Sequence record: PV287714.1
Reading direction: 5' to 3' (one strand)
From: Escherichia phage HMD-9
DNA: 64,000 nucleotides
Shown: positions 1,873-40,410 of the stretch, piece by piece
Layout: every line of letters starts with the position of its first letter
How positions within the stretch are numbered: the first letter of the stretch is position 1
Made by a program: the position numbers and the translations under genes
The notes under the pieces: generated by a model
The model's database searches: none
Told to the model about the DNA's origin: nothing
Seen by the model: only the letters and a program-made list of their open reading frames with translations

Positions 1873-2473
1873 GGTGTCTTTTCCATCCTAATTTAGCTGC
1901 TTTTGAAACCAGTTCTTTAATTTTTCCTTTTGTCCATTCAGGACCAGGAGGTTCATGACATAACATTTGCTTAACTCCGTTATTATACCATTTTTTACCT
2001 TTATTATGTGATGAAGCTTTAAATTTATTTGACCTTCCTTTTACATAACCTTCTGGAATATAAGGCAAAAAGGCAGATTTTCCTGTTAATGGATCATGTG
2101 AATGTATATTTCCTTTACAATTATGAGAACCATATAATGGATGATTTTGTCCTTTATTATCTCTTCCAAATGAACCTTTTGGAGCAGCATATGACATATT
2201 AAAGAATAATGGATTTTTAACTGCATCATGCAATCGTTGATAATATAACTCGCATTTAATAGCTTCTTCACGCGTATCAAATTCAGCTAAAATGCATGAA
2301 TCAAATAAGTGAGGATTATCTGAAAGCTCTTTATTATAAATTTTCTTATACTTTTTAGATAAAACTGAACCATGATATCCAGCTAAATGCCTATCTAAAG
2401 ACGTAGATCCAATATAAAAAGGAGGAAGTTTATCTCCACTATATATTGTTAAATAAGTTATATATTTTTTCAT
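1850..2473 (-). CDS. GIY-YIG family endonuclease-like protein (seg-like homing endonuclease candidate)
   Basis: 207 aa; N-terminal TIY-x8-YIGST, Arg/Glu/Asn in GIY-YIG spacing; C-terminal GxxHSxxxK-type repeats and KKWYNNG motif typical of homing-endonuclease DNA-binding modules. Confidence 0.6.
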   Translation of the reverse strand: MKKYITYLTIYSGDKLPPFYIGSTSLDRHLAGYHGSVLSKKYKKIYNKELSDNPHLFDSCILAEFDTREEAIKCELYYQRLHDAVKNPLFFNMSYAAPKGSFGRDNKGQNHPLYGSHNCKGNIHSHDPLTGKSAFLPYIPEGYVKGRSNKFKASSHNKGKKWYNNGVKQMLCHEPPGPEWTKGKIKELVSKAAKLGWKRHHENTKLG

Positions 2474-2610
2474 ATATCAAGAACCGTCATTGAAATGCAA
2501 AATAAAATTATTGAAATAAATCCATCTGGAGTGCTAAAGAACCCAATCCAACATGCTCTAGTGAATAGATAAAATGCGAGAAAAAGTATCACATATCCAA
2601 GAAATATCAT
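2470..2610 (-). CDS. small hydrophobic ORF (46 aa, MIFLGYVILFLAFYLF...), translationally coupled to the GIY-YIG-like gene
   Basis: Manual translation; GGAG RBS upstream; TGA overlaps downstream ATG (ATGA); below the 60-aa ORF-track cutoff. Confidence 0.3.
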   Translation of the reverse strand: MIFLGYVILFLAFYLFTRACWIGFFSTPDGFISIILFCISMTVLDI

Positions 2611-2629
2611 TATATCAAACTCCGTATAA

Positions 2630-2652
2630 AGCTAAAGGGCCGAAGCCCTTTA
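2630..2652 (-). terminator. GC stem-loop (GGGC-UUCG-GCCC) directly after a-gt stop; weak U-run
   Basis: Inverted repeat gggccgaagccc at 2637-2648. Confidence 0.4.
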
Positions 2653-3852
2653 TTTTGTAATAATGTCAAACTGCTCTTTAAAGCAGAAGCTTGAATCTTG
2701 ATGCTGATACAAAAATTCATAAGCTTTTTCACGTTCACGGTCATAAAGAGCTCGGTCAGATGACAGTTCTTTAATACGTTCAAATGTTGATTCCATGTCA
2801 TTTTCATCAAACCAAACGATACCGCTATCATGAGAAATTAATGGAGTATTATCAACACGGAATTTTAAATTTTCGCCCGTAGATTTCCAAAATACTGGAA
2901 TTGTTCCACATGCACCAAGCTCGAGATGAGTATATTCTAAAGAACGTTGTAGATATTTTTTATCTAATTTACTCAGCTGATAGCCAAATCCGGATTTACT
3001 CATGCGTTCAAGCATTTCGCTATTTACGTAACGGTCAAGAATTTGCGTTGGCAAATTAGGAGCAATTTTAATTTGGTCTACTTGATGAAGACGATAATAC
3101 TCGTATGGAATTCCTTTTTCTTTAATAGGAATGAATGCTGGAGAACGTTCCAGACCTTCCATAATAGTACTTAGTCCTGCAGGTTTAAGATGTTTTTCAT
3201 GAAAATCAAACATCTGATAAAAGCCTTTCCATGTAGTAGTACGACCAATCCAACGGTTGATATTCATGTTAATTTCAGAAACATCTTTCCAGTAGGTTGA
3301 TCGAACCTTCGCAATATCCATAGGAGGCTGAAAGTTATATACGGTCGGTGCTTCTTCAATATCATCAAACAGAGAAACAGTTTCCGGATACCATTCTTTC
3401 ATCAAAACTTTATTAAAGTCACCATTATCAGAATGGCTAAAAATAACATCAGCTCGACGAACAGTTTCTTCTAATCCCAAATTTCGACGCAAAGAAAGAG
3501 AAGAATGGTCATGCTGATAAACTACAACACGAACCGAAGGTTTAATGTTATCAATAATTTTTTTATAGTTATTAATGGTGTCTTCTTCTACTGAAGTAGC
3601 AGGAACTGAATTGATAATTAAAATATCGCAATCATTTACCAGTTTAAGTGTTTTATCGTATTCTTTTGCCAATAAAACCGGAATTGAAAATGACTTATAA
3701 TCATGTGCGCAATTACGAGTAAATGATTTATCTTTAGCATAAACCAAAGTTACTTCATGACCATTTTTAATAAACCAATCACGTTGCTCAAGAGAAAATT
3801 TAGTTACACCGCAACCTTCAAGACCTCGAGCCATAAAAATACATACTTTCAT
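2650..3852 (-). CDS. a-gt: DNA alpha-glucosyltransferase
   Basis: 400 aa; N-terminus MKVCIFMARGLEGCGVTKF matches recalled T4 a-gt; synteny between 47 and 55. Confidence 0.9.
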   Translation of the reverse strand: MKVCIFMARGLEGCGVTKFSLEQRDWFIKNGHEVTLVYAKDKSFTRNCAHDYKSFSIPVLLAKEYDKTLKLVNDCDILIINSVPATSVEEDTINNYKKIIDNIKPSVRVVVYQHDHSSLSLRRNLGLEETVRRADVIFSHSDNGDFNKVLMKEWYPETVSLFDDIEEAPTVYNFQPPMDIAKVRSTYWKDVSEINMNINRWIGRTTTWKGFYQMFDFHEKHLKPAGLSTIMEGLERSPAFIPIKEKGIPYEYYRLHQVDQIKIAPNLPTQILDRYVNSEMLERMSKSGFGYQLSKLDKKYLQRSLEYTHLELGACGTIPVFWKSTGENLKFRVDNTPLISHDSGIVWFDENDMESTFERIKELSSDRALYDREREKAYEFLYQHQDSSFCFKEQFDIITK

Positions 3853-6488: not shown

Positions 6489-6620
6489 TTAAATTTTCCA
6501 GTTACCATTTTCATCAATGAATTTAATCCAGTCATTTACTGACCACTTGGTCGTATCGCCTTTTGGAGCAACATTTAAAGTGTATAATCCTTGTTTAAAA
6601 AGCATTCGTTTGATATTCAT
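6489..6620 (-). CDS. hypothetical small protein (start placed at internal ATG after upstream stop)
   Basis: ORF track frame 6489..6704; ATG at 6620 follows the upstream stop at 6628. Confidence 0.4.
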   Translation of the reverse strand: MNIKRMLFKQGLYTLNVAPKGDTTKWSVNDWIKFIDENGNWKI

Positions 6621-6921: not shown

Positions 6922-7096
6922 GGAGTTTAATTTCCTTAGCAACTGAACTAAATACAGCACGGTCACAAATCATCTGTTTATGTAACTTAAGTATAAGATA
7001 ATAAACTTCAAAACCGTTTACGTAAGTAACACGAACAACATTACCATTAATAAAATAATATTGTCCCTTTTTAATTTCTTTATCAACCACAACCAT
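6914..7096 (-). CDS. hypothetical small protein
   Basis: ORF track 60 aa; early promoter immediately upstream. Confidence 0.45.
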   Translation of the reverse strand: MVVVDKEIKKGQYYFINGNVVRVTYVNGFEVYYLILKLHKQMICDRAVFSSVAKEIKLHG

Positions 7097-8193: not shown

Positions 8194-8664
8194 TTAATCA
8201 TGTTTCCACACCCCATCGGTATTTGACCAAAGCCGCTGATTATCTGAACCTCGCCACAGCTTTTTGGTCGGAAGATTTTTCTCATACTTCCCATCAATAA
8301 TAACATCAACATATTTAAGCATTTCTAGTTGTTTAATATCTTCAAACTTATATCCTGTCCACAACCAAATGCTTTTATTCGGATAAAGATTTTTTACCGT
8401 TTGAACAATGCAATGAACATCATCTCGGTTATCAGGATAAAGAGGGTCTCCTCCAGTTATAGTTAATCCTTCTATATAATCATTATTCAAACATTCAATT
8501 AATTGTTCTAGTGTTTCACCAGTGAATGGAACGCCATTTCTAGCATTCCATGTTGATTTATTATAACACCCTTCACATTTATGCAAACACCCCGTAACGA
8601 AAAGAACGACCCTGCATCCAGGGCCATTTACAAAATCGCAGGGATAAAATCTATCGTAATTCAT
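8194..8664 (-). CDS. nrdG: anaerobic ribonucleotide reductase activating enzyme (radical SAM)
   Basis: 156 aa; CxxxCxxC cluster motif GCLHKCEGC; directly downstream of nrdD. Confidence 0.9.
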   Translation of the reverse strand: MNYDRFYPCDFVNGPGCRVVLFVTGCLHKCEGCYNKSTWNARNGVPFTGETLEQLIECLNNDYIEGLTITGGDPLYPDNRDDVHCIVQTVKNLYPNKSIWLWTGYKFEDIKQLEMLKYVDVIIDGKYEKNLPTKKLWRGSDNQRLWSNTDGVWKHD

Positions 8665-17358: not shown

Positions 17359-17886
17359 TTATGCGAGTACCGTCTTTAACCGTTCTTCAAACTTCCGAAG
17401 AGTATTTTGGCGTTCAGCTCTTTGCTTTTTGTAAGTTTCAATACGCTCTGAAATGAGAGTGTATCGTTCATTTACTGATTCTTTCATAAAATCAGGAATT
17501 TCACGAGAAGCTTTAATCTCATCAAATTTATCAATAACAGCTTGCTCTTCAGCAATTAAGTTATCATACATTAAAATATCTTTCTCGATGAACTCAATAT
17601 CTTCTTGAGTTACACGAGATAATTTAGATGCTTTATCCTTTTTGTACTGTTCGTTAGTATCACGAGACCAGTGTAATGTACGATTTTTATTCGTATTCTT
17701 GTAAATTTCTACAATACCAATTTCATCAATAATAACGATCCAATTCCAACGGGATTTGTAAATTTGTCCTCCATCAACAGTGATTTCACCTCCGATTGAG
17801 ATGTCGTTAAAGAACTTACTCTGTGCTTCAGATTTAAATTTACCATCGTTGTAATTTACCAAGTTGAAAATATCTTTAGCGTTCAT
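17359..17886 (-). CDS. hypothetical protein
   Basis: 175 aa; GGAGGA RBS and early promoter upstream. Confidence 0.6.
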   Translation of the reverse strand: MNAKDIFNLVNYNDGKFKSEAQSKFFNDISIGGEITVDGGQIYKSRWNWIVIIDEIGIVEIYKNTNKNRTLHWSRDTNEQYKKDKASKLSRVTQEDIEFIEKDILMYDNLIAEEQAVIDKFDEIKASREIPDFMKESVNERYTLISERIETYKKQRAERQNTLRKFEERLKTVLA

Positions 17887-17914
17887 TTTGTGTTCCTCCG
17901 TAGTTGATAGTTGT

Positions 17915-17944
17915 ATAGTACCACAGAGGAACAGTCTTGTAAAC
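17915..17944 (-). promoter_or_regulatory. T4-type early promoter (GTTTAC-N18-TACTAT)
   Basis: Reverse complement GTTTACaagactgttcctctgtggTACTAT; same cassette recurs at 19357 and 36100. Confidence 0.6.
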
Positions 17945-17946
17945 CA

Positions 17947-18261
17947 CTAAAAGAAACTTCTTTCACAATTTTTTCCACTGAACCATGCGCTTACCGCTTT
18001 CTTAGTCTTGGGAGCAGTGTTATCCATAAACCATTCAAAGGCAGCCTTTTTATGATTCTGGAGGGCTTCTCGGGCTTTAATCTGCTCACGGTCTATTAAC
18101 ACTAACATATGAGCCTTTCTTGTCACCATGGGCTTCTTATGATTTTTTGAATACTCCCAGTCATTTGTCCATCGCATTGTTGTTGCGAATTGAAATACAG
18201 CTTCTTTAATTTTAGTTTCGTAAATTTCACGAGCCTTTGAGTATAACATCACTACCTCCAT
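17947..18261 (-). CDS. hypothetical protein
   Basis: ORF track 104 aa. Confidence 0.5.
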   Translation of the reverse strand: MEVVMLYSKAREIYETKIKEAVFQFATTMRWTNDWEYSKNHKKPMVTRKAHMLVLIDREQIKAREALQNHKKAAFEWFMDNTAPKTKKAVSAWFSGKNCERSFF

Positions 18262-18350
18262 TCACCAGTTTAGTTCTAGTCATCTTTTTAATGGCAGTCC
18301 ATATAATCTATTTCTGAACTGCCTTTTTGTCATAGAAGTCCTCTTATGAA

Positions 18351-19331
18351 TTATTTCAGAAGAGTAACCTCAGCAATTTCTTCCCAACCGTTTTTGTCGG
18401 TCATAATAAAGTCAGCAAGATAAAGAGCAGTACGCAGTGAAACATTGCGTAAACGATTAACATTAACTTTCATCCATGATAATGCTTTATAAGTTTCTTC
18501 ACTAGAAAGACCGCGCTTTTGCATCATGTCAGTTGAAAGAATAACATCTTCAACCCTGACCATAATTTCTTCATTAGTGTGAACACCCAAATCCAAATAA
18601 ACTGAGCGGGACACTAATGCTTGTAAGTGTGGAGCAAGTTTAGTACCGCGGTCTAATTCGCGGTCAATGTCAACGTTTGTGATAAAAACAATCGTTCCTT
18701 TAAATTCAAACTCACGGTCAATGCCTTTTTCTTCTAAGTAAGAAGATGCAGTGCTCCAGCAGACTTTACGGGTCTCTCCAGTGTCCAGAGCAGCTTTTAG
18801 AAGATTAAGAATGTCCATATCAGAGAAAACATCCACATCATCAATCAAAAGGACAGAATTCTCTTCACGATTATTCCAAAGCTGTTCATAAAGACCAATA
18901 CCAGAGATTTTACCATTAATGCTTTTATATTCAATGTATCCAATATCATTTGCTTTATTTAAAGCTTTATCTAAAGAATACGTTTTACCAATACCTGCTG
19001 CGCCAGAGATAATTAATGAACGAATATTTCCATTAATAATACCGTTCGTCATCATTCCCATAACATTAAATCTTTTATTAATGCGGGTTTTCATATCTTC
19101 ATATGATTCTTTAACTTCTTCAACTTTTACACCATCATATGAAATATCTGATTTGTAAACCCAAACACCGCGACGTTTACCGTCAATTTCAACAAAAACT
19201 TTACCATCTCCTTGTGCATCTACCGGAGCATTATCTGGGAACCATTCGCCTAAGAGCTCAAAAGTTCCAGAGATTTCTTTACCGAAGTAGATACCCTTAT
19301 TGATAGTTACAGTTTTCATTTTATTCTCCAA
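18351..19331 (-). CDS. AAA+-like P-loop ATPase of unknown function
   Basis: 326 aa; Walker A GAAGIGKT, Walker B VLLIDDVD, sensor-like FITN; own early promoter. Confidence 0.65.
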   Translation of the reverse strand: MENKMKTVTINKGIYFGKEISGTFELLGEWFPDNAPVDAQGDGKVFVEIDGKRRGVWVYKSDISYDGVKVEEVKESYEDMKTRINKRFNVMGMMTNGIINGNIRSLIISGAAGIGKTYSLDKALNKANDIGYIEYKSINGKISGIGLYEQLWNNREENSVLLIDDVDVFSDMDILNLLKAALDTGETRKVCWSTASSYLEEKGIDREFEFKGTIVFITNVDIDRELDRGTKLAPHLQALVSRSVYLDLGVHTNEEIMVRVEDVILSTDMMQKRGLSSEETYKALSWMKVNVNRLRNVSLRTALYLADFIMTDKNGWEEIAEVTLLK

Positions 19332-19356
19332 ATCTGTATCAGTAGTTGATAGTTGT

Positions 19357-19386
19357 ATAGTACCATAAAGCTTTATGCTTGTAAAC
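19357..19386 (-). promoter_or_regulatory. T4-type early promoter (GTTTAC-N18-TACTAT)
   Basis: Reverse complement GTTTACaagcataaagctttatggTACTAT. Confidence 0.6.
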
Positions 19387-19411
19387 CGTTTTGTGAAAAA
19401 ATTTTTGAAAT

Positions 19412-19436
19412 AAAAAAGGGGACCTCTAGGGCCCCC
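19412..19436 (-). terminator. rho-independent terminator
   Basis: GGGGGCCC-taga-GGTCCCC stem followed by U6 on minus strand. Confidence 0.6.
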
Positions 19437-19447
19437 TTTGTGTTGAT

Positions 19448-19933
19448 TTATTCCATTTCTACTATATGCATGTTCTTTTTGCTATCAAAATATATGTTTT
19501 TAACTATTAACTCAGAATTAATTGGCAGTAAAAACTCTCTTTCATAATCTACCATACAAAGGTTATCATAAAGCTTGTTAAGCTTATCATCGTCAATTTG
19601 ACCAGATTCTTCAATTGCGATTAAATTTTCTAAAATGTCAATCATAGCAGTCGAATAGTCGAAAACGTTTGCATTTTTTAACACTACTAAAACATTAGTC
19701 ATATAGCGTTCTGCCGCAAACGTTTCAGCTATATGAGACTCACTGCTAAAGGAAGTTATTCTTTTAAATTTGATTCTCCTATTAACTTCAAACTTATAAG
19801 ATAGCACTTCCTCTATTGTAAGTCCTCTAAAAAGTGTGTCTTTAATCTCAAGTTTGTCTTTAATGTAATCATTAACACGCTTATGATTAAAATCATTAAT
19901 TTTGTTGCCAAGGCATTGCATTAAAATATGCAT
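19448..19933 (-). CDS. hypothetical protein
   Basis: ORF track 161 aa; flanked by its own promoter and terminator. Confidence 0.6.
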   Translation of the reverse strand: MHILMQCLGNKINDFNHKRVNDYIKDKLEIKDTLFRGLTIEEVLSYKFEVNRRIKFKRITSFSSESHIAETFAAERYMTNVLVVLKNANVFDYSTAMIDILENLIAIEESGQIDDDKLNKLYDNLCMVDYEREFLLPINSELIVKNIYFDSKKNMHIVEME

Positions 19934-19979
19934 TGTATTCTCCTCAATTTTTAAAGAGCAATTAATTAACTACACATAT

Positions 19980-20009
19980 ATTATAATATGCTTTGCGGCA
20001 GAAGTAAAC
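19980..20009 (-). promoter_or_regulatory. T4-type early promoter (GTTTAC-N18-TATAAT)
   Basis: Reverse complement GTTTACttctgccgcaaagcataTATAAT. Confidence 0.6.
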
Positions 20010-20030
20010 AACTTTGTGACGTCATTTTAA

Positions 20031-20056
20031 ACAAAAAAGGGAGCCCGAAGGCTCCC
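20031..20056 (-). terminator. rho-independent terminator
   Basis: GGGAGCC-ttcg-GGCUCCC stem plus U6 on minus strand, directly after the stop at 20059. Confidence 0.65.
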
Positions 20057-20058
20057 TA

Positions 20059-21072
20059 TCATTTATAATAACTTCGGTGGTTTTCAAGATAAACCCTCTC
20101 AAGGAAGTCATCCCAGAAACCCATGTCTACTTTTTGCTGCATACCGTTCTTAGAAGCTTCAATGGATGCTGCTTCTACTTGATCGACCACATCTTCCAAA
20201 AACTCTTGAACAGTTTTAAATGGATGTTTACCCAGCTTCACGTCGAGAATAAACGGAGCATCTTGGAGTGGATAAACCAAGTCGCCAGTTTTGTAAATTT
20301 CCAATAGTTGGAGTCCACCACGACAAGCATGACTCAGAGCTTTCCAATCAATGCCTTCGTTAGCTTCAGCTTTACGAGCGCGTTCACCATATTCAGCATC
20401 GAGTTTATTCAAAGACTGCTTAAGCTCAATAAGAGAAAGTGTAGTCTGATATTTACGACCCAACACAGTATAGAACGTTTGCGGGCCTGTTTTCTCATGA
20501 TTATGGAATACCCATTCACAGAATTCGTTTTCTGGAAGACGGTGTTTAATATCTGCAATTTTAGTACGACGTTGTCCTTGTGTTCCATCTTCTCGGTAAT
20601 CAACCCACTGATCGGGGATTTGATTAACTACTTTCAATACATCACGCAATGCGGCCAAACGAGAACCCTTAACACCATATTTAGAAGCTTGCTTGCGGAC
20701 ATATCCTAAATAAGATTTCATGTTAGTTGTATAAAAACGAGAACGATTGTCTTGAATAAACTTCCATACATCAGGCAAATCAGATTTAACTACCAGTTCA
20801 GGTGGAGTGTGGAGCATATCCAATGCTACGGTTTCACCATCTGCTGCTAATTTAAAGAAATACTTAAGACTGTATAGTTCATGGTCAATATCATCTTTAG
20901 TGTTTTTAGATGATGTGTTGTTAGTGTTTTTGCTCATATGCTCTTTAACATTTCCAATAAGAATATCACGAGCAGGAGGAACAAAGATTTCTTTAAAATC
21001 TACATCAGATTCTGGAGTAGAAGTTCCATAAAGATGACTACCAAAATAGCTTTTCATTACTGTTTTCATCAT
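20059..21072 (-). CDS. Pol-beta-superfamily nucleotidyltransferase (NTP_transf_2-like) of unknown substrate
   Basis: 337 aa; N-terminal FGSHLYGTSTPESDVDF fits the hG[GS]x9-13[DE]h[DE]h nucleotidyltransferase signature. Confidence 0.65.
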   Translation of the reverse strand: MMKTVMKSYFGSHLYGTSTPESDVDFKEIFVPPARDILIGNVKEHMSKNTNNTSSKNTKDDIDHELYSLKYFFKLAADGETVALDMLHTPPELVVKSDLPDVWKFIQDNRSRFYTTNMKSYLGYVRKQASKYGVKGSRLAALRDVLKVVNQIPDQWVDYREDGTQGQRRTKIADIKHRLPENEFCEWVFHNHEKTGPQTFYTVLGRKYQTTLSLIELKQSLNKLDAEYGERARKAEANEGIDWKALSHACRGGLQLLEIYKTGDLVYPLQDAPFILDVKLGKHPFKTVQEFLEDVVDQVEAASIEASKNGMQQKVDMGFWDDFLERVYLENHRSYYK

Positions 21073-22059: not shown

Positions 22060-22617
22060 TCACTTTGAAATCATAGTTGGAATGACAGAATCAAGATAAG
22101 TCTTTAGCGCAATAGCTTCGTCTTTGGTAAATGTGACAATATGTGATCGAAAATCGTCAATTTGGCGAATAATTAAGACATCTCCCTCTTCATAACATTT
22201 TGATACATTTAAAAGAGTTTCATCATTCTGATCGCAAGCATTAGTAATAATAGCATTGCAATTTTTGAGCCATTTTAAACTATGTTTTCTTTCATTAGAA
22301 TAATAAAAATATTTAATCTTAGCTATAAAACTATCCCAATGAATAACTGATAAGCACATTGACTCACTTTTAATATTAAATCCTGGGCATGAAGAATAAA
22401 AATGAATTTTGTGCTCATCATTGATGCTTACTATTTTATCAGTATAAGGATATTCAATTTGGGTTAAATGAATGATTTCACTAGGCGTAAAATACAGCAT
22501 ATCGTCTTCTTGCGTCAAACGATACATATTATTTACTTTTTCTATAGCCAATTCACCAAAAAGCGGACTAACTTCTAATACTAATCGTTTCATATTGATT
22601 CTCTTCGACTCACTCAC
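22060..22617 (-). CDS. hypothetical protein, paralog of 21532..22053
   Basis: ORF track 185 aa. Confidence 0.55.
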   Translation of the reverse strand: MSESKRINMKRLVLEVSPLFGELAIEKVNNMYRLTQEDDMLYFTPSEIIHLTQIEYPYTDKIVSINDEHKIHFYSSCPGFNIKSESMCLSVIHWDSFIAKIKYFYYSNERKHSLKWLKNCNAIITNACDQNDETLLNVSKCYEEGDVLIIRQIDDFRSHIVTFTKDEAIALKTYLDSVIPTMISK

Positions 22618-29948: not shown

Positions 29949-30545
29949 TTAATTACCACGGGCTGCATTAGCAACGGCATAAGCGTACTGAACATTAGCG
30001 TCTTTAAACATACCTTTAGAGGTGTCTATTTCTGCCTTAAAGCCGCCTTTAGCCATAACATCGGCAAATTCTTTACGGAAAGCCATTGCATCAAGACCTT
30101 TCCATGATGATTTGTGCTTGGCGAATTCAAGACCAGCGTAGTTGACAGCCTTAGCTAATTTATTATCAATAACCCATTTACCAGCTTTAGGCACAAACAC
30201 AGGACCTTTCTGTTTAGAGAACAGTTTTAAATTCCAGCGACGAAGGTCAAAGTCAGCTTTAACAAAAGCTGCGTCCAAGTTACTAGCAACAACATCTTCA
30301 ATATGAGCAAATTTAAGTCCGTCAACTTCAATATTTAGGTCGGTACGCCAGCGAAGTCCTTTCCAGGCGAAAGCTTTAAAGTCGGAAGCCTTTGTAGCTA
30401 AATACCGTTCAATAGGAGCTGTTTTAGCGTCAAAACCATTTCCTGGGTTGTCAACGCCGTTTCCTCGGTAAGTCCACTCATCTTTATTAATGCCTTGGAC
30501 CTTTCCTACAGAAGCTTCGGCGATAAATTCTTTATATGTTTTCAT
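29949..30545 (-). CDS. internal-protein-like, capsid-targeting N-terminus (IPIII-like size)
   Basis: 198 aa; N-terminal MKTYKEFIAEA matches the recalled T4 capsid-targeting sequence (MKTYQEFIAE). Confidence 0.7.
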   Translation of the reverse strand: MKTYKEFIAEASVGKVQGINKDEWTYRGNGVDNPGNGFDAKTAPIERYLATKASDFKAFAWKGLRWRTDLNIEVDGLKFAHIEDVVASNLDAAFVKADFDLRRWNLKLFSKQKGPVFVPKAGKWVIDNKLAKAVNYAGLEFAKHKSSWKGLDAMAFRKEFADVMAKGGFKAEIDTSKGMFKDANVQYAYAVANAARGN

Positions 30546-30598
30546 ACGGATTCCTTAAAGGTAAATATTTTAATTGGTATGTTCAAGTAACTGTAGAT

Positions 30599-30627
30599 AT
30601 ACTATCACAATTCTAGGAGATGTAAAC
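30599..30627 (-). promoter_or_regulatory. T4-type early promoter (GTTTAC-N17-TAGTAT)
   Basis: Reverse complement GTTTACatctcctagaattgtgaTAGTAT. Confidence 0.5.
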
Positions 30628-31026
30628 TTATTTGTAGGTTTTCATCCAATTCTTGAACAAAGCCACGACGTCTTTCTCTTTAACGTTCAGTTTAACGTCC
30701 AACATTTTACCACCAGCTGCTCTCGTTTGGCGAATCTTAGCAGTACCGGTTTCGCCATTCCACTCAACATAATATTGTCCAGCGTTCATTGCAATACCAT
30801 CGCCGTAGTCTTCATTTTTAGAAGTGGTGAAGGCCAGCTTCATAGTCTTAGAGACACGAGCCTGCATGCCTGTCTGAAGGGCATTACGAACGCGAATAAC
30901 CTGAGGAGTGGCCTGGGTCAGGTTCTCATTCAGTTCTTCAGTGAACTCTTCAGATTCAAACATAGCCAAAAGTTCTTTAGATGCAGGAATTACATTCTCT
31001 GCGATAAATTCTTGATACGTTTTCAT
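30628..31026 (-). CDS. internal-protein-like, capsid-targeting N-terminus
   Basis: 132 aa; N-terminal MKTYQEFIAEN. Confidence 0.7.
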   Translation of the reverse strand: MKTYQEFIAENVIPASKELLAMFESEEFTEELNENLTQATPQVIRVRNALQTGMQARVSKTMKLAFTTSKNEDYGDGIAMNAGQYYVEWNGETGTAKIRQTRAAGGKMLDVKLNVKEKDVVALFKNWMKTYK

Positions 31027-31056
31027 TTTTGTTTCCTTGTTTGTTTTGATAGAGTA

Positions 31057-31089: not shown

Positions 31090-31350
31090 TTAAGCTTTAC
31101 CGCCAGAAATAATTCCGAAGTTGTTAAAATCATATCCAATATCGTCAACATCTACTTTAGGGCTTGCTACAACATAAGCAATTTCACTACGTTTTGCATA
31201 GGTGTTTATTTCTCTACCATCGCCGCCTAGGAAAGAATACCCATTACGTTTTAATGAGCCAAAGTCTTCCGCATCACCAATGAAAGCTTTAACTTTAAAT
31301 TTAGGACCTTTGGCATCTGCTTCAGCGATAAATTCTTGATACATTTTCAT
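31090..31350 (-). CDS. internal-protein-like, capsid-targeting N-terminus
   Basis: 86 aa; N-terminal MKMYQEFIAEA. Confidence 0.65.
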   Translation of the reverse strand: MKMYQEFIAEADAKGPKFKVKAFIGDAEDFGSLKRNGYSFLGGDGREINTYAKRSEIAYVVASPKVDVDDIGYDFNNFGIISGGKA

Positions 31351-31356
31351 TTTTCC

Positions 31357-31770
31357 TTAGTAAATTGATTTACCATAGTATTTGTACCAAGTAGGACGTT
31401 GAGCAATTTTTTCGTCTAAGCGTGCTTGACTTATCGCAATGGACGCTTCGGACGGGACATAATTATTACGAAATTCGGCAGGGATGTCAGAAATATCCTG
31501 AACAGTCGTGTCCTTGATTTTGAAACCACGTTTCAAGCATTCAGCGATTAGCTCGATTTGACGTAAACGTAAAAATTCGAGTTTGTCGTAAAAGAATGTT
31601 ACGTGTCCTGTGCCTAAGATAAATGTTGGAGAGATTTTAAAATCCTTTACGCGTTTACCGTTTTTAACATGTTTACGGACTGCACCAAATACGCGTGGTA
31701 ATTCACGATACTCAGCCATAAGATGTTGGTCGGTCAGTTCAGAAACAAGTGTTAAATTGATACGAGTCAT
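31357..31770 (-). CDS. denV: endonuclease V (pyrimidine-dimer DNA glycosylase)
   Basis: [34 protein letters not shown]... matches recalled T4 DenV; ATG 31770 preceded by GGAGG. Confidence 0.9.
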
Positions 31771-31797
31771 AATTTCCTCCAAGTAGTTGATGAATGT

Positions 31798-31827
31798 ATA
31801 GTATCAAAACCCTTGGAGGAAGTAAAC
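31798..31827 (-). promoter_or_regulatory. T4-type early promoter for denV (GTTTAC-N18-TACTAT)
   Basis: Reverse complement GTTTACttcctccaagggttttgaTACTAT. Confidence 0.55.
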
Positions 31828-36055: not shown

Positions 36056-36099
36056 TTCATTCTCCAAGTTGTTTTTCTGTATCAGTAGTTGATAGTTGT

Positions 36100-36129
36100 A
36101 TAGTACCACGGAAGAACATGGATGTAAAC
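36100..36129 (-). promoter_or_regulatory. T4-type early promoter (GTTTAC-N18-TACTAT)
   Basis: Reverse complement GTTTACatccatgttcttccgtggTACTAT. Confidence 0.6.
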
Positions 36130-36261: not shown

Positions 36262-36288
36262 CAAAAAAGCCCTATCATTTAGATAGGG
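36262..36288 (-). terminator. rho-independent terminator
   Basis: CCCTATC-uaaau-GATAGGG stem plus CUUUUUU on minus strand, after the stop at 36297. Confidence 0.65.
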
Positions 36289-36296
36289 ATTTAAAA

Positions 36297-36860
36297 TTAT
36301 TTGCTTAGTTTAGTTATTATAGCTTCTGCGGCAGCTTTTAGCTTAGATGCGGTGTTAATACGATTTTTAATTTCAGTATACGCATCGCCAAGAACATCAA
36401 GGCTATCAGAATAAACACTTACACTATTGCGTTCGCTATTTGAAATAGAACCTTTAGTTTTACGATCAAAATCGGTATACACGTCTTGAAGATCGCGGGC
36501 TGCCTTCTTTGCATCATCCAATGCGTCAAGAGCTTTATTCAAAGCATTAACATATTTTTTAGTGTCAAACATATTCTTAGAAATTTTAACAGGTGCACGT
36601 TCAGGAGTAGCTAATGCAGATTTAGGAACCTGAGCGCCAGATGCCAATTTCTTAGAAATTTTGAAAAATGCTTTATTGAATTTATTTTCTTGACTCATTG
36701 TAAAAGAACTATTATCGATGTTGTACATTTCAATAGCTTTAGCTTTCCACTTAAGAAAATCGCCGCGGTCTTTTGGATCCAAGTGGAAGAATACTTTAGT
36801 AAGATCTGCTTCAGATGGTAATTTTGCTGCTTCGGTTAAAAATTCGGCATAGGTTTTCAT
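36297..36860 (-). CDS. internal-protein-like, capsid-targeting N-terminus
   Basis: 187 aa; N-terminal MKTYAEFLTEA. Confidence 0.65.
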   Translation of the reverse strand: MKTYAEFLTEAAKLPSEADLTKVFFHLDPKDRGDFLKWKAKAIEMYNIDNSSFTMSQENKFNKAFFKISKKLASGAQVPKSALATPERAPVKISKNMFDTKKYVNALNKALDALDDAKKAARDLQDVYTDFDRKTKGSISNSERNSVSVYSDSLDVLGDAYTEIKNRINTASKLKAAAEAIITKLSK

Positions 36861-36950
36861 TTAAAATCCTTGAAATAATTTATCGGTTGGTTATTAATTA
36901 TTTATTACTTTGTTATTATCCGTAACAGCATTCTCTATGTGATTCAAACT

Positions 36951-36977
36951 AAAAAGCCCTAACCTTTCGGTCAGGGT
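36951..36977 (-). terminator. rho-independent terminator
   Basis: CCCUGACC-gaaa-GGUUAGGG stem plus CUUUUU on minus strand. Confidence 0.6.
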
Positions 36978-36985
36978 TAAGAATG

Positions 36986-37459
36986 TTATTTGATTTGTTT
37001 AGCAGACCAAATGCGGTCTTTAATAATTTTTTGGATGTCTTCAACATACTCTAGGTCATGAGCATGTGGGTTGTCTTTGAAACTATAAGCACGGGCTAAC
37101 TTTTGGCCTTCGGTTTTGATTACTAAAAGCTCTTTAAGGATAGCTTCATATTTAGCGATAATTCCTTTAACAATATTTTTTTCTTGTGCAGCTTTAGGAT
37201 CCGCTTTAGGAGCAGGTTTACCGGAAGGTTTTTCGAAAGCCGCACCAGTAGCAACCAGGCTTTTCCAGGCGGTGGTAACATAGTTACCCACAAAGCCTTC
37301 AGCTCTCATATCGTCGTAGAACTTGTACCGGGATTCGTCAGAAGCATCTTTATAAGAATATTTACCAGCTTTAATAGCAGCAGTTGCTACAGCGCGAACA
37401 TCTGAAGCGGATGCTTCATTTAACGCCACTTCATTTAAAAATTGAGCATATGATTTCAT
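36986..37459 (-). CDS. internal-protein-like, capsid-targeting N-terminus
   Basis: 157 aa; N-terminal MKSYAQFLNEVA. Confidence 0.6.
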   Translation of the reverse strand: MKSYAQFLNEVALNEASASDVRAVATAAIKAGKYSYKDASDESRYKFYDDMRAEGFVGNYVTTAWKSLVATGAAFEKPSGKPAPKADPKAAQEKNIVKGIIAKYEAILKELLVIKTEGQKLARAYSFKDNPHAHDLEYVEDIQKIIKDRIWSAKQIK

Positions 37460-37497
37460 CTTATTTCCTGTTTTAATTCGTGATTTAATACACTACT

Positions 37498-37505
37498 ATA
37501 TTTAT
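37498..37505 (-). promoter_or_regulatory. T4 late promoter box TATAAATA
   Basis: Plus tatttata at 37498-37505, immediately after terminator U-run and upstream of 36986..37459. Confidence 0.45.
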
Positions 37506-37508
37506 ACT

Positions 37509-37535
37509 AAAAAGCCCCAACCTTTCGGTCGGGGC
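37509..37535 (-). terminator. rho-independent terminator ending the tRNA/small-RNA transcript
   Basis: GCCCCGACC-gaaa-GGUUGGGGC stem plus U5 on minus strand. Confidence 0.6.
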
Positions 37536-37536
37536 T

Positions 37537-37846
37537 AAGCCTTGCGGCAACCTTGTCGGGGTTCCACCTGCTAAGGCAAGTGTTTGTACGAAACGCCGGG
37601 ATTCGAACCCGGTTATTAAGCAGTTGACGCTACTCAATATTTTAAAAGGCCATATCTCGACCATATCCGAACGTTCCGTCAAAAACGCTACTCGGCTTAC
37701 GGCAAAGATATTTCCTCGAATCGATAATTCGGTGCGCCGTTTCAGCTGTGATAGTAAAGAACCAGAACACAGTAAAACTGTGGGAGGAACTATACTCCAT
37801 GGAACATCAGTCCGACGACTTACCGGTAGCGACCCGGTTTCTTGTT
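37537..37846 (-). ncRNA. putative stable small RNA(s) downstream of tRNA-Arg (T4 species-1/2 RNA-like), with tRNA-like T-arm/acceptor element at 37588-37678
   Basis: No ORF; T-arm-like CCGGGTTCGAATCCCGG and 7-bp acceptor-like pairing but no canonical D/anticodon arms. Confidence 0.4.
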
Positions 37847-39454: not shown

Positions 39455-39632
39455 CTTTAGAAATTTTATCCATAACGATAGCGATTAAACCAATTAAAAA
39501 TGCTACTACAAGTGAAAAAACATTTTCTGCTGTAGTCAATAATCCGCATATAAATCCAACAAACATTGAAAAACTAAAAGCGGAAGCAGAAATTGCAATA
39601 GCAACATTTCGAATTAATTCACAACGTTTCAT
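39447..39632 (-). CDS. small membrane protein (two hydrophobic segments)
   Basis: 61 aa; early promoter directly upstream. Confidence 0.5.
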   Translation of the reverse strand: MKRCELIRNVAIAISASAFSFSMFVGFICGLLTTAENVFSLVVAFLIGLIAIVMDKISKGE

Positions 39633-39660
39633 TTTATTCTCCTCTGTAGTTGATAGGGTA

Positions 39661-39690
39661 ATAGTATCACTACCCTATCTAAAAGTAAAC
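39661..39690 (-). promoter_or_regulatory. T4-type early promoter (GTTTAC-N18-TACTAT)
   Basis: Reverse complement GTTTACttttagatagggtagtgaTACTAT. Confidence 0.6.
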
Positions 39691-39702
39691 TGTTTTTATA
39701 AA

Positions 39703-40011
39703 CTATTTTATTCCGCGTGATGCAATTGTATTCTGTCGTTTAGCACCAGTTTGTTTAAAGTCATGATTGTCGATTTGATCGGTACGAGCAACTCCGAATG
39801 ATGATTTAATCTTAGCTTTAGATCCTTTAGTTATAGAAATAAACATCTCGGAAGCCCCTTTCTTAAAGTCCGAAGCAATTACTTCAACACCGTTCTTAGC
39901 AAGTGACTTCAGAATTGCCTCCGCGTACTCATCATCAAGACTCGCTTGAGTATTAATAACGAATGTCTTTGGTGCAGCCGCTTCATTGATAAATTCTTTA
40001 AATGTTTTCAT
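39703..40011 (-). CDS. internal-protein-like, capsid-targeting N-terminus (IPI-like position next to 57B)
   Basis: 102 aa; N-terminal MKTFKEFINEAA. Confidence 0.65.
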   Translation of the reverse strand: MKTFKEFINEAAAPKTFVINTQASLDDEYAEAILKSLAKNGVEVIASDFKKGASEMFISITKGSKAKIKSSFGVARTDQIDNHDFKQTGAKRQNTIASRGIK

Positions 40012-40041
40012 TTTATTTTCCTAATTAATTTTGATGAGATA

Positions 40042-40071
40042 ATAGTATCACTACCCTATCTAAAAGTAAAC
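40042..40071 (-). promoter_or_regulatory. T4-type early promoter (GTTTAC-N18-TACTAT)
   Basis: Reverse complement GTTTACttttagatagggtagtgaTACTAT (near-identical to the cassette at 39661). Confidence 0.6.
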
Positions 40072-40344
40072 TCATTTTAAATAAATTGCGTATTTTTTAT
40101 AGCCACCAGGCTCGTGTCGAAGACCCCTATCATTAGCAAAACGCTCAATGTTGTTAATTTGATTCTGGTCAAGTTCAGAGATGTCAAACACGAAATAGTT
40201 ACGTTTGTTACCAACTGTTACATAGTCAGTTAAATCAATACCATATAGGTAATTGATGTCAGCAATCATAGTCTTGACAGCTTTGCTAATTTTTACTTTT
40301 TCGTTAAAAGTAGCTTCATTGATAAATTCTTTAAATGTTTTCAT
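40072..40344 (-). CDS. internal-protein-like, capsid-targeting N-terminus
   Basis: Start at MKTFKEFINEAT (ORF track frame 40072..40356). Confidence 0.65.
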   Translation of the reverse strand: MKTFKEFINEATFNEKVKISKAVKTMIADINYLYGIDLTDYVTVGNKRNYFVFDISELDQNQINNIERFANDRGLRHEPGGYKKYAIYLK

Positions 40345-40380
40345 TTTATTCTCCAATCACTCATTTGTTTTGATAGGGTA

Positions 40381-40410
40381 ATAGTATCACAACTAAAACC
40401 CCGTGTAAAC
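40381..40410 (-). promoter_or_regulatory. T4-type early promoter (GTTTAC-N18-TACTAT)
   Basis: Reverse complement GTTTACacggggttttagttgtgaTACTAT. Confidence 0.6.

Follow-up and report, generated by a model that had tools for sequence, protein, structure and literature searches.

In the window, the stretch of 64,000 nucleotides of Escherichia phage HMD-9 (PV287714.1) that was analysed here, it is highly probable that a set of repeated sequences represents the cores of T4-type early promoters, and that genes bracketed by promoter/stem-loop composites (PeSLs, promoter-early stem-loops) are cassettes exchanged via short homology patches. This mechanism has already been published as PeSL cassettes and the finding is therefore real but known: it matches the published PeSLs and T4 early promoters, and supplies extra examples and no new principle. 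The window is Tequatrovirus (T4/T2-like) DNA with genes on the minus strand; the features discussed below are collected in Table 1.

Table 1. Repeated 24-mers, predicted early promoters and terminators, and associated genes in the window.
Feature	Position	Strand	Remarks
24-mer copy 1	17900..17923	-	exact match; TGGTACTAT and leader ACAACTATCAACTAC of predicted nrdC.8 early promoter
P_nrdC.8 core	17915..17944	-	GTTTAC, 17 nt, TGGTACTAT; -35 directly after nrdC.9 stop codon
nrdC.9 homologue (DUF7203)	17947..18261	-	
nrdC.10 homologue (AAA/STAND-like NTPase)	18351..19319	-	
PeSL_B	19320..19439	-	predicted hairpin 19415-19439, T-run, UP TTTCACAAAACG, GTTTAC 19386-19381, spacer, TGGTACTAT, leader
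24-mer copy 2	19342..19365	-	exact match; within predicted nrdC.10 promoter
ORF161	19448..19933	-	161 aa; small Mod-like ADP-ribosyltransferase (phrog_832, E=6.5e-24); PeSL on each side
PeSL_A	19934..20057	-	predicted hairpin GGGAGCCTTCGGGCTCCC 20038-20057, T-run, UP, GTTTAC 20009-20004, spacer, TATAAT, leader
Predicted early promoter upstream of denV	31798..31827	-	holds closest inexact 24-mer copy (4 mismatches); breakpoint 31827/31828
24-mer copy 3	36085..36108	-	exact match; within predicted e.8 promoter, core 36100-36129 (families D3, D11)
Predicted terminator hairpin upstream of P_e.8	36270..36288	-	deletion endpoint in T4, T2 and phiD1
Predicted GAAA-tetraloop terminator between IP-like genes	36957..36976	-	putative homology patch for deletions (family D5)
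Predicted GAAA-tetraloop terminator	37513..37536	-	paralogous to 36957-36976; deletion endpoint (family D5)
Predicted early promoter of trna.4 homologue	39661..39690	-	left edge of swappable internal-protein cassette(s) (family D2)
Predicted early promoter of internal head protein gene 39703-40011	40042..40071	-	
Predicted early promoter of internal head protein gene 40072-40344	40381..40410	-	(family D1)

Repeated cores of probable early promoters

The 24-mer GTAGTTGATAGTTGTATAGTACCA is present in three exact copies, all on the plus strand when written this way, in agreement with the sequence-only reading, which had placed near-identical sequence at 17900, 19341 and 36085; the second copy really starts at 19342. 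The chance expectation is 0, as no match is found in 100 dinucleotide-preserving shuffles even with three mismatches allowed, and a chance origin of the repeat is ruled out. Read on the minus (coding) strand, the 24-mer corresponds to a TGG-TACTAT extended -10 followed by the first ∼15 nt of a T4-type early promoter leader. The TACTAT proposed earlier as the -10 is correct on this strand, in the arrangement GTTTAC, 17 nt, TGGTACTAT, and the repeats, described as promoter-proximal, appear from their anatomy to be promoter cores, some of them within promoter/stem-loop cassettes. Three further sites (39661, 40042 and 40381) had been taken as copies with small changes; they are related promoters, but their likeness was overstated, with mismatches at 5 of 24 positions at 39646, 9 of 24 at 40366 and 11 of 24 at 40027. 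A closer copy that was overlooked starts at 31783, with four mismatches, upstream of a gene which we take to be denV on the basis of its encoded N-terminus, MTRINLT.

At 17900 and 36085 the 24-mer is fixed at orthologous positions throughout the seven genomes under comparison and coincides with no breakpoint; the copy at 17900 is identical in T4, T2, G29, F25, Shfl2 and phiD1. Because of this fixation, the different spacers of the copies and the absence of terminal repeats and target duplications, an origin by recent duplication of a segment or from a small mobile element was rejected. At copy 2 the allele of the window (leader ACTACTGATACAGA) differs from that of T4 and T2 by a 3-nt indel and one SNP, both of which match the paralogous promoters P_e.8 and P_motA. 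The e.8 cassette around copy 3 is a paralogue of PeSL_B (∼95 nt at 81%) with a decayed stem. In T4-like phages the 24-mer precedes at least six unrelated genes, and a promoter core of ∼60 nt is reused ahead of an unrelated gene in one genome.

Because a generic σ70 scan barely exceeds the background (21 sites, against 15.8 and 16.9 expected from shuffles), the phage-specific pattern GTTTAC-N17-TAnnAT was used instead. It identifies 14 sites, all on the minus strand between 7 and 40.4 kb and none in the late-gene half of the window. Each of the 14 directly precedes a Shine-Dalgarno sequence and its ATG, with ∼55 nt between the site at 30626 and the ATG, and their consensus is a..tt..aa....t.tc..aAAa..GTTTAC..TG.TA.tAT.....TATcAActac. 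The family has the UP block aaaaTTTTTCACAAA in common, a TG precedes the -10 in 12 of the 14 promoters, and in about 10 the -10 is followed by a prominent conserved block, TATCAACTAC. The genes served include nrdC.8, nrdC.10, e.8, regB, denV and the internal-protein (IP) genes, as well as motA in related contigs. The core of 29 nt of the trna.4-homologue promoter is identical to that at 40042-40071. A search of the literature for maps of transcription starts across the T4 genome returned nothing directly usable; the sequence anatomy suggests that these sites are active promoters.

One block, TGGTACTATACAACTATCAACTAC(TGATACAGA), keeps every letter across promoters that are not orthologous (nrdC.8, nrdC.10, e.8, motA and others), amid drifting spacers and stems. 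Beyond its recognition by σ70, this block might be a start-site/leader signal to which a phage or host factor responds, kept uniform through concerted evolution, that is, by gene conversion between copies many kilobases apart; such a signal, which is distinctly unlikely, could serve Alt-dependent stimulation, early shut-off, or the stability or translation of early mRNA.

Stem-loop cassettes and their exchange

Predicted terminator hairpins in the window contain UUCG or GAAA loops followed by U-runs, with folding energies of -14 to -20 kcal/mol and z-scores of about -3.5, from which terminator activity seems likely. Two of them directly precede an early promoter: the PeSL_B hairpin (-16.5 kcal/mol) the promoter at 19385, and the PeSL_A hairpin (-16.2 kcal/mol) the promoter at 20008. 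No stem-loop adjoins the promoter at 17943 (P_nrdC.8), the UP region of which lies inside the nrdC.9 coding sequence; at 36128, next to the 36085 copy, only a decayed half-stem is left, the real hairpin being located ∼140 bp upstream; and the promoters at 39689, 40070 and 40409 have no adjacent stem of the terminator type. The earlier suggestion that several repeats are paired with GC-rich terminator hairpins thus holds for the promoters at 19385 and 20008, but not for the others; as a neighbouring hairpin is found at just two sites out of 14, the majority are ordinary early promoters and not complete PeSLs. Both PeSLs continue with a GGAG Shine-Dalgarno sequence, followed by the ATG of nrdC.10 in PeSL_B and that of ORF161 in PeSL_A. 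PeSL_B shares identical blocks of 40 and 33 nt with P_motA.

The two PeSLs bracket ORF161, for which a Pfam search gave no family (PHROGs gave one) and which occurs in 43 phage records at ≥90% amino acid identity. At the nrdC.11-nrdC.10 junction an allelic series is observed: PeSL-ORF161-PeSL in the window and T2, one PeSL only in T4, IME340, Shfl2 and F25, which lack ORF161, two more ORFs with an extra promoter in G29 and SYGD1, and a different ORF in phiD1 and EH2. The single PeSL of T4 combines the window's hairpin A with the T-run, UP, -35, -10 and leader of PeSL_B, and is an exact chimera of both cassettes with a junction overlap of 17–54 bp between the two parts. In the comparison of the window and T2 with T4, IME340, Shfl2 and F25, the PeSLs of ORF161 flank a variable ORF and are replaced by a single chimeric element where this ORF is absent. 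ORF161 lies between nrdC.11 and nrdC.10 in every context examined, a subset of the 43 carriers that includes Citrobacter phage Moon, and these contexts give no evidence of re-insertion at other genomic positions. In addition, phage PST contains a 100% identical copy of the nrdC.10 promoter of the window, the window P_nrdC.10 contains a conversion-like patch, and comparison of the promoters reveals a 41-bp tandem duplication in Shfl2.

Phage Moon contains the ORF161 cassette at 91–94% nucleotide identity, whereas the flanking genes are only 67–72% identical. Going from upstream to downstream, identity to the window is 66.6% in nrdC.11, 48% in hairpin A and UP, 90.7% from the -35 to the ATG, 93.8% in ORF161, 80.6% in hairpin B and UP, 59% in the next promoter core and 71.6% in nrdC.10. 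The segment of high identity begins at the -35 of the upstream cassette, where identity in PeSL_A rises from 48% to 91%, and stops in the UP/-35 region of the downstream cassette. This identity profile documents passage of the ORF161 cassette between genera, from Tequatrovirus to Moonvirus or the reverse.

Cassette swapping of the same kind is observed at the internal-protein locus at 39.6–40.4 kb, where related phages have swapped IP genes at 39.7–40.3 kb. All IP swaps observed share a right edge at 40324, where a conserved block of promoter, Shine-Dalgarno, ATG and targeting codons ends; on the opposite side they are bounded by the following early promoter, at 39642-39700. The window has two tandem IP cassettes and T4 ipI alone; T2 departs from the window between 40054 and 40324.

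Crossover positions and alternative explanations

Breakpoints were mapped by comparison with six long loci from related genomes (T4, T2, G29, F25, Shfl2 and phiD1). They occur at 19313-19331 and 19420-19437 at the 19342 cassette, at 20004-20025 at PeSL_A, at 39642-39700 at the 39661 cassette, at 40054 at the 40042 cassette, and at 40323-40325, in the first codons downstream, at the 40381 cassette; P_nrdC.8 shows none in these loci. Of the six sites named in the sequence-only reading, which had proposed this comparison, four thus have breakpoints at their cassettes. Its idea that the repeats act as homology patches for modular exchange is supported for the cassettes, but not for the exact 24-mer. 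Crossing over does not take place at the 24-mer (-10 and leader) itself, but in the T-run/UP/-35 stretch, in the stretch from the Shine-Dalgarno to the first codons, or in hairpins, and other junctions have overlap homology in IP targeting-sequence codons and terminator hairpins. Recombination at the exact 24-mer was also rejected by a search with a synthetic junction of nrdC.10 promoter and nrdC.8 leader, which found no recombinant among 499 matching records; for the predicted 17900/19342 deletion two records have ≥80% junction coverage, of which EH2 was inspected and is parental in its arrangement.

Promoter cassettes make up 5.6% of the sequence, yet contain 11 of the 52 breakpoint sites (p=1.3e-4), and a breakpoint is found at 10 of 14 gene boundaries with a promoter as compared to 26 of 71 without (p=0.0175). 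When the comparison is confined to intergenic regions of ≥30 bp, however, this enrichment loses significance (10/13 versus 11/23, p=0.087), and 47 of the 52 sites fall at gene boundaries anyway. All 14 promoters lie in the early-gene half, a placement in hyperplastic regions as for PeSLs, with modest statistical support. This loss of significance, the high share of breakpoint sites at gene boundaries, the lack of a breakpoint at two of the three exact 24-mer copies and the failure to find the 24-mer-to-24-mer deletion among the 499 matching records (one of two candidates inspected) would also be expected if the repeats were conserved only as a constraint on strong promoters and had no causal role, indels and promoters both surviving only between genes; the identity of the RNA-polymerase contact elements, against variable spacers and hairpin stems, points the same way. 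This explanation is nevertheless unlikely. The overlap homology at the junctions (17–55 bp) maps exactly onto shared cassette parts, the steps in identity to Moon are found at the -35 and the next UP/-35 and not at gene ends, chimeric promoters and a conversion-like patch exist, and PeSL-PeSL recombination circles have been shown experimentally in RB49/phi1 (PMC2839356).

Outside the promoter cassettes lie 41 of the 52 breakpoint sites, several of which (8654, 9941 and 18357) are homing-endonuclease or intron insertions. A free-standing endonuclease gene of 720 bp is located at 18344/18370, just downstream of nrdC.10, in N2, F25 and SYGD1, mobD is found beside nrdC.11 in T4 and F25, and T4 has mobC, I-TevII and segB insertions at 8654, 9941 and in the tRNA region. 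The mosaicism might then result mainly from double-strand-break repair that co-converts nearby DNA, with the promoters as bystanders. ORF161 is, however, independent of the nearby endonuclease, the window and T2 containing ORF161 only and F25 the endonuclease only, and the cassette edges consist of promoter/terminator sequence with overlap homology instead of endonuclease targets, which makes this origin very unlikely. A dedicated site-specific recombinase or DNA-binding protein, recognising the cassettes in an integron-like manner in place of general homologous recombination, was suggested by the PeSL authors because of GGGG...CCCC stems (PMC2839356), and the hairpins of the window are of the same type. 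Since crossover positions vary between T-run/UP, Shine-Dalgarno-ATG, targeting-sequence codons and hairpins, the cassettes have no associated recombinase gene, and short homology patches are reported to be sufficient for T4 recombination (PMC2839356), such an enzyme is extremely improbable.

In the preferred reading, that of early promoters and exchangeable cassettes, the promoters would be read by unmodified host σ70 RNA polymerase straight after infection, with a layout of A/T-rich UP element, GTTTAC, a 17-nt spacer, TGnTAnnAT, the conserved block TATCAACTAC at the start site and leader, and then the GGAG Shine-Dalgarno and the ATG. The repeats would be identical mainly because very strong promoters are functionally constrained, and now and then patches would be converted between copies. 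A promoter directly after an intrinsic terminator hairpin would constitute a PeSL, a composite of ∼100–120 bp, and a gene between two PeSLs would be a transcriptionally self-contained cassette. Efficient homologous recombination of the phage could use the T-run/UP/-35, the stretch from the Shine-Dalgarno to the first codons and the terminator stems as short homology patches, through which cassettes may be lost, gained or replaced with neighbouring genes undisturbed. The recombination pathway is presumably homologous, possibly proceeding through excised circles.

Relation to known systems

The raw sequence confirms a published route of accessory-gene gain and loss in T4-like phages, in which promoter/terminator linkers serve as landing pads for cassettes. 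What is new is incremental: a sharply bounded cassette, encoding a third Mod-like ADP-ribosyltransferase and common to two genera, a hot spot with four alleles at the nrdC.11-nrdC.10 junction, and evidence that crossovers take place in the flanks of the promoter core and not in its -10/leader part. Existing knowledge is unchanged, and the results are of use for annotation of the window and for choosing engineered insertion sites in T-even phages.

T4 early promoters are of the UP/-35/TGn/-10 type with additional consensus regions (Hinton 2010, PMC2988021). The UP element, -35, TGn, -10 and further consensus positions are all present in the promoters of the window, and the genes served are likewise early (regB, denV, the IP genes and nrdC.x, and motA in related contigs). 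The swapping of IP genes resembles, with no difference of substance, the polymorphic internal-protein loci of T-even phages (Repoila et al. 1994, as cited in PMC2839356 and PMC4122927). Morons of lambdoid phages are units of promoter, gene and terminator, and ORF161 is likewise a self-contained unit inserted between two genes; morons, however, are not thought to move via conserved flanks (PMC2839356), whereas the flanks of ORF161 are repeated and mark junctions.

The closest known system is formed by the PeSLs of T4-like phages, described for RB49/phi1 (Arbiol et al. 2010, PMC2839356) and for PST/T4 and nt-1/KVP40 (Comeau et al. 2014, PMC4122927); promoter and terminator activity and excised mini-circles have been demonstrated only for RB49/phi1 (PMC2839356). 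The promoters of the window fit the PST/T4 PeSL consensus, TTTACW-N17-TAYWAT (PMC4122927). PeSLs combine a stop codon, an AT-rich region, a σ70-type early promoter, a stem-loop terminator, a Shine-Dalgarno sequence and an ATG, and the composite in the window is built alike. They cluster in hyperplastic regions and flank ORFs that differ between close relatives, and single chimeras mark deletions, again as in the window. Nothing essential differs, although in the window just 2 of the 14 promoters have an adjacent stem-loop; added here are the placement of crossovers in the T-run/UP/-35 stretch and one transfer of a cassette between genera.

The repeat and the anatomy of the early promoters

The 24-mer GTAGTTGATAGTTGTATAGTACCA occurs in three exact copies in the window (17900-17923, 19342-19365 and 36085-36108), whereas no match, even at 3 mismatches, was found in 100 dinucleotide-preserving shuffles, confirming that the recurrent near-identical sequence described in a sequence-only reading is real. 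In a repeat search the copies fall in families of 48-49 nt, with weaker members at 39643, 40031, 40370, 31046, 31787, 23547 and 7109. Three sites described as having small changes (39661, 40042 and 40381) are indeed related, but have mismatches at 5, 11 and 9 of the 24 positions; an overlooked copy at 31783 is nearer, with 4 mismatches.

All copies have the form TGG-TACTAT-ACAACTATCAACTAC on the minus strand. On this strand the assignment of TACTAT as the -10 element is borne out by a GTTTAC hexamer 17 nt upstream; each copy is followed 10-30 nt downstream by a GGAG Shine-Dalgarno (SD) sequence and an ATG. On the minus strand, a phage-specific pattern search yields 14 such promoter sites, spanning 7.1-40.4 kb; the late-gene part of the window has none. 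Aligned on the -10, their consensus is a..tt..aa....t.tc..aAAa..GTTTAC..TG.TA.tAT.....TATcAActac. Early promoters of T4 are of the UP/-35/TGn/-10 type with further consensus regions (PMC2988021), and a PST/T4 consensus TTTACW-N17-TAYWAT has been described (PMC4122927). Judged by sequence, the window sites have the anatomy of T4 early promoters, and the PST/T4 consensus also fits. The genes served are classical early genes, i.e., regB, denV, nrdC.x, e.8 and internal head protein (IP) genes. The names regB and denV are assigned from N-terminal sequences; in related contigs the 24-mer likewise heads two further ORFs and what is, from its N-terminus, presumably motA. The promoters at 39661-39690 and 40042-40071, 381 bp apart, share an identical 29-nt core including the spacer (GTTTACTTTTAGATAGGGTAGTGATACTAT), suggesting that an IP cassette was recently duplicated in tandem.

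A strong intrinsic terminator lies directly before only 2 of the 14 promoters (hairpin z-scores approximately -3.5 each). The pairing of several copies with GC-rich terminator hairpins holds for these two, but not for copy 17900, which has no hairpin, nor for copy 36085, which retains only a decayed half of the 19415-19439 stem and has a separate hairpin ∼140 bp upstream of its -35.

Features of the window (nrdC genes and ORF161 from comparison with T4 and T2 annotation)
Feature	Position	Strand	Remarks
nrdC.8	17359-17886	-	T4/T2 annotation
nrdC.9	17947-18261	-	T4/T2 annotation
nrdC.10	18351-19319	-	T4/T2 annotation
ORF161	19448-19933	-	extra 161-aa ORF; T4/T2 comparison
nrdC.11	20059-21072	-	T4/T2 annotation
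Hairpin GGGAGCCUUCGGGCUCCC	20038-20057		-16.2 kcal/mol; tail U6
Hairpin AAAGGGGGCCCUAGAGGUCCCCUUU	19415-19439		-16.5 kcal/mol; U-run tail
IP-like gene	36297-36860
IP-like gene	36986-37459
SD-ATG-first-codons block	30514-30555
SD-ATG-first-codons block	30995-31036
SD-ATG-first-codons block	31319-31360
SD-ATG-first-codons block	36829-36870
SD-ATG-first-codons block	37428-37469
SD-ATG-first-codons block	39601-39642
SD-ATG-first-codons block	39980-40021
SD-ATG-first-codons block	40313-40354

Breakpoints and the promoter core

Comparison of the window with six long loci (T4, T2, G29, F25, Shfl2 and phiD1) identifies 52 separate breakpoint sites in the interval 4.5-44.4 kb. Promoter cassettes, 5.6% of the sequence, contain 11 of them (binomial p=1.3e-4), and 47 lie at gene boundaries regardless. 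A breakpoint is carried by 10 of 14 boundaries with a promoter versus 26 of 71 without (Fisher p=0.0175), and by 10 of 13 versus 11 of 23 when only intergenic regions of at least 30 bp are taken (p=0.087). The breakpoints at 8654, 9941 and 18344/18370 have nothing to do with promoters, being insertions of a homing endonuclease or an intron; at 18344-18370, between nrdC.10 and nrdC.9, a site with no promoter association, N2, F25 and SYGD1 carry a free-standing 720-bp endonuclease gene.

The 24-mer itself was rejected as a crossover site. Copies 17900 and 36085 do not vary among the seven compared genomes and carry no breakpoint. No deletion between copies 17900 and 19342 was found: a synthetic junction representing its product was covered to at least 80% by only 2 of 499 matching phage records, and EH2, the one examined, is parental. 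The mapped crossovers lie in the T-run/UP/-35 part, the SD-ATG part or the hairpins. Since crossovers map elsewhere than the 24-mer, the identity of the core reflects mostly constraint on the promoter; signs of patchy conversion are also present. The proposal that the repeats act as homology patches for gene exchange is supported, though the exact repeat corresponds to the core of the promoter rather than to the point of exchange.

The nrdC.10 leader (19342-19356) reads ACTACTGATACAGA in the window and ACTGATACGGA in T4, T2 and F25, a 3-nt indel and one SNP apart. Both differences agree with the e.8 and motA promoters and both alleles are widespread; the window allele resembles a patch left by gene conversion between two promoters that lie 16.7 kb from each other. 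To the 100-nt nrdC.10 promoter region of the window, 52 records are at least 99% identical and 315 are 95-99% identical. In Shfl2 (∼6945-7030 of its locus) the -10 plus leader, 41 bp, is duplicated in tandem upstream of nrdC.10 (TGGTACTATACAACTATCAACTGATACGGATTTGGA twice). Chimeric promoters are present in related contigs; in IMG/VR contig 2974742932_000001 an unrelated ORF, small and membrane-protein-like (MKKIIKAIWNVV...), is preceded by a second copy of the entire nrdC.8 promoter core (-35 to SD with spacer, ∼60 nt). The leader CTATCAAAACAAATGAGTGATTGGAGAATAAAATG, of a second type, occurs in an IP promoter of the window (40345-40380), the extra nrdC.10 promoter of G29 (∼22320-22360) and phiD1 (∼6500-6535), where, as in EH2, it belongs to the promoter of an alternative ORF; leaders therefore appear to be shuffled between promoters independently of spacers.

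At the IP locus, the differences between the window and any divergent relative are bounded by two edges. The left edge, 39642-39700, corresponds to the early promoter of the trna.4 homologue, except in T2, where it lies in the next promoter, at 40054; the right edge, 40323-40325, coincides with the end of the conserved promoter-SD-ATG-targeting-codon block. IP loci are already known to show this pattern (Repoila 1994, as cited in PMC2839356 and PMC4122927). Eight genes share an SD-ATG-first-codons block, MKT(Y/F)(Q/K)EFI..., reminiscent of the sequence that targets internal head proteins to the capsid, and two of the eight blocks contain deletion or swap endpoints (30545/30998 and 40324). The overlap-homology junction 30545/30998 falls in the IP targeting-sequence codons, and junctions 36288/37504, 36313/36948 and 36981/37500 fall in the paralogous GAAA-tetraloop terminators that part the two IP-like genes. 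Relatives lack one or both of these genes, which lie in the region 36270-37540, with overlaps of 30-55 bp at the hairpins. A TATAAATA box directly after hairpin 37513-37536 resembles a late promoter.

The nrdC.11-nrdC.10 junction and ORF161

The 4-kb region is 95-98% identical to hundreds of Tequatrovirus (T4/T2-like) genomes, and its nrdC.11-nrdC.10 junction is a hot spot where four or more alleles occur: a single hairpin-promoter unit without ORF (T4, IME340, Shfl2, F25), ORF161 between two units (window, T2), two further ORFs with an extra promoter (G29, SYGD1) and a different 66-aa ORF (phiD1, EH2). The T4-type unit is exactly the window's upstream hairpin joined to its downstream T-run/UP/-35/-10/leader, with BLAST segments overlapping by 17-54 bp, the geometry that homologous exchange between the two flanking units would produce.

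ORF161 matches phrog_832 (E=6.5e-24) and has no match in Pfam. It is predicted to be a small Mod-like ADP-ribosyltransferase, with an R-S-ExE pattern (LFRG, SFSSES, EREF) read by eye. At 90% or more amino acid identity it is present in only 43 phage records; remoter relatives (26-33%) are modB-type genes of other T4-like genera. It occupies the same junction in Citrobacter phage Moon (genus Moonvirus). The ORF161 cassette (2416-3050 of the Moon locus, window 20018-19386) is 91-94% identical between the two phages at the nucleotide level, against 67-72% for the flanking genes. Segment by segment, nucleotide identity between Moon and the window is 66.6% in nrdC.11, 48% in the upstream hairpin and UP, 90.7% from -35 to ATG of the ORF161 promoter, 93.8% in ORF161, 80.6% in the downstream hairpin and UP, 59% in the next promoter's core and 71.6% in nrdC.10. 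These sharp changes, one at the upstream cassette's -35 and one within UP/-35 of the downstream cassette, indicate that a promoter-gene-terminator unit moved recently between Moonvirus and Tequatrovirus.

Relation to known promoter/stem-loop elements

PeSLs (promoter-early stem-loops) are ∼100-bp early-promoter/stem-loop composites in hyperplastic regions, flanking ORFs that vary among close relatives; loci without the ORF retain one chimeric element, and recombination between PeSLs, including excised mini-circles, has been demonstrated in RB49/phi1 (PMC2839356). The concept was later extended to PST/T4 (PMC4122927), and the nrdC.10 promoter region of the window has a 100% identical counterpart in phage PST. 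Most other window promoters differ from PeSLs in being plain early promoters without stem-loop, but both units flanking ORF161 have the PeSL features that can be tested in silico. All observations in the window match the PeSL concept, and its promoter/stem-loop cassettes are an already known phenomenon.
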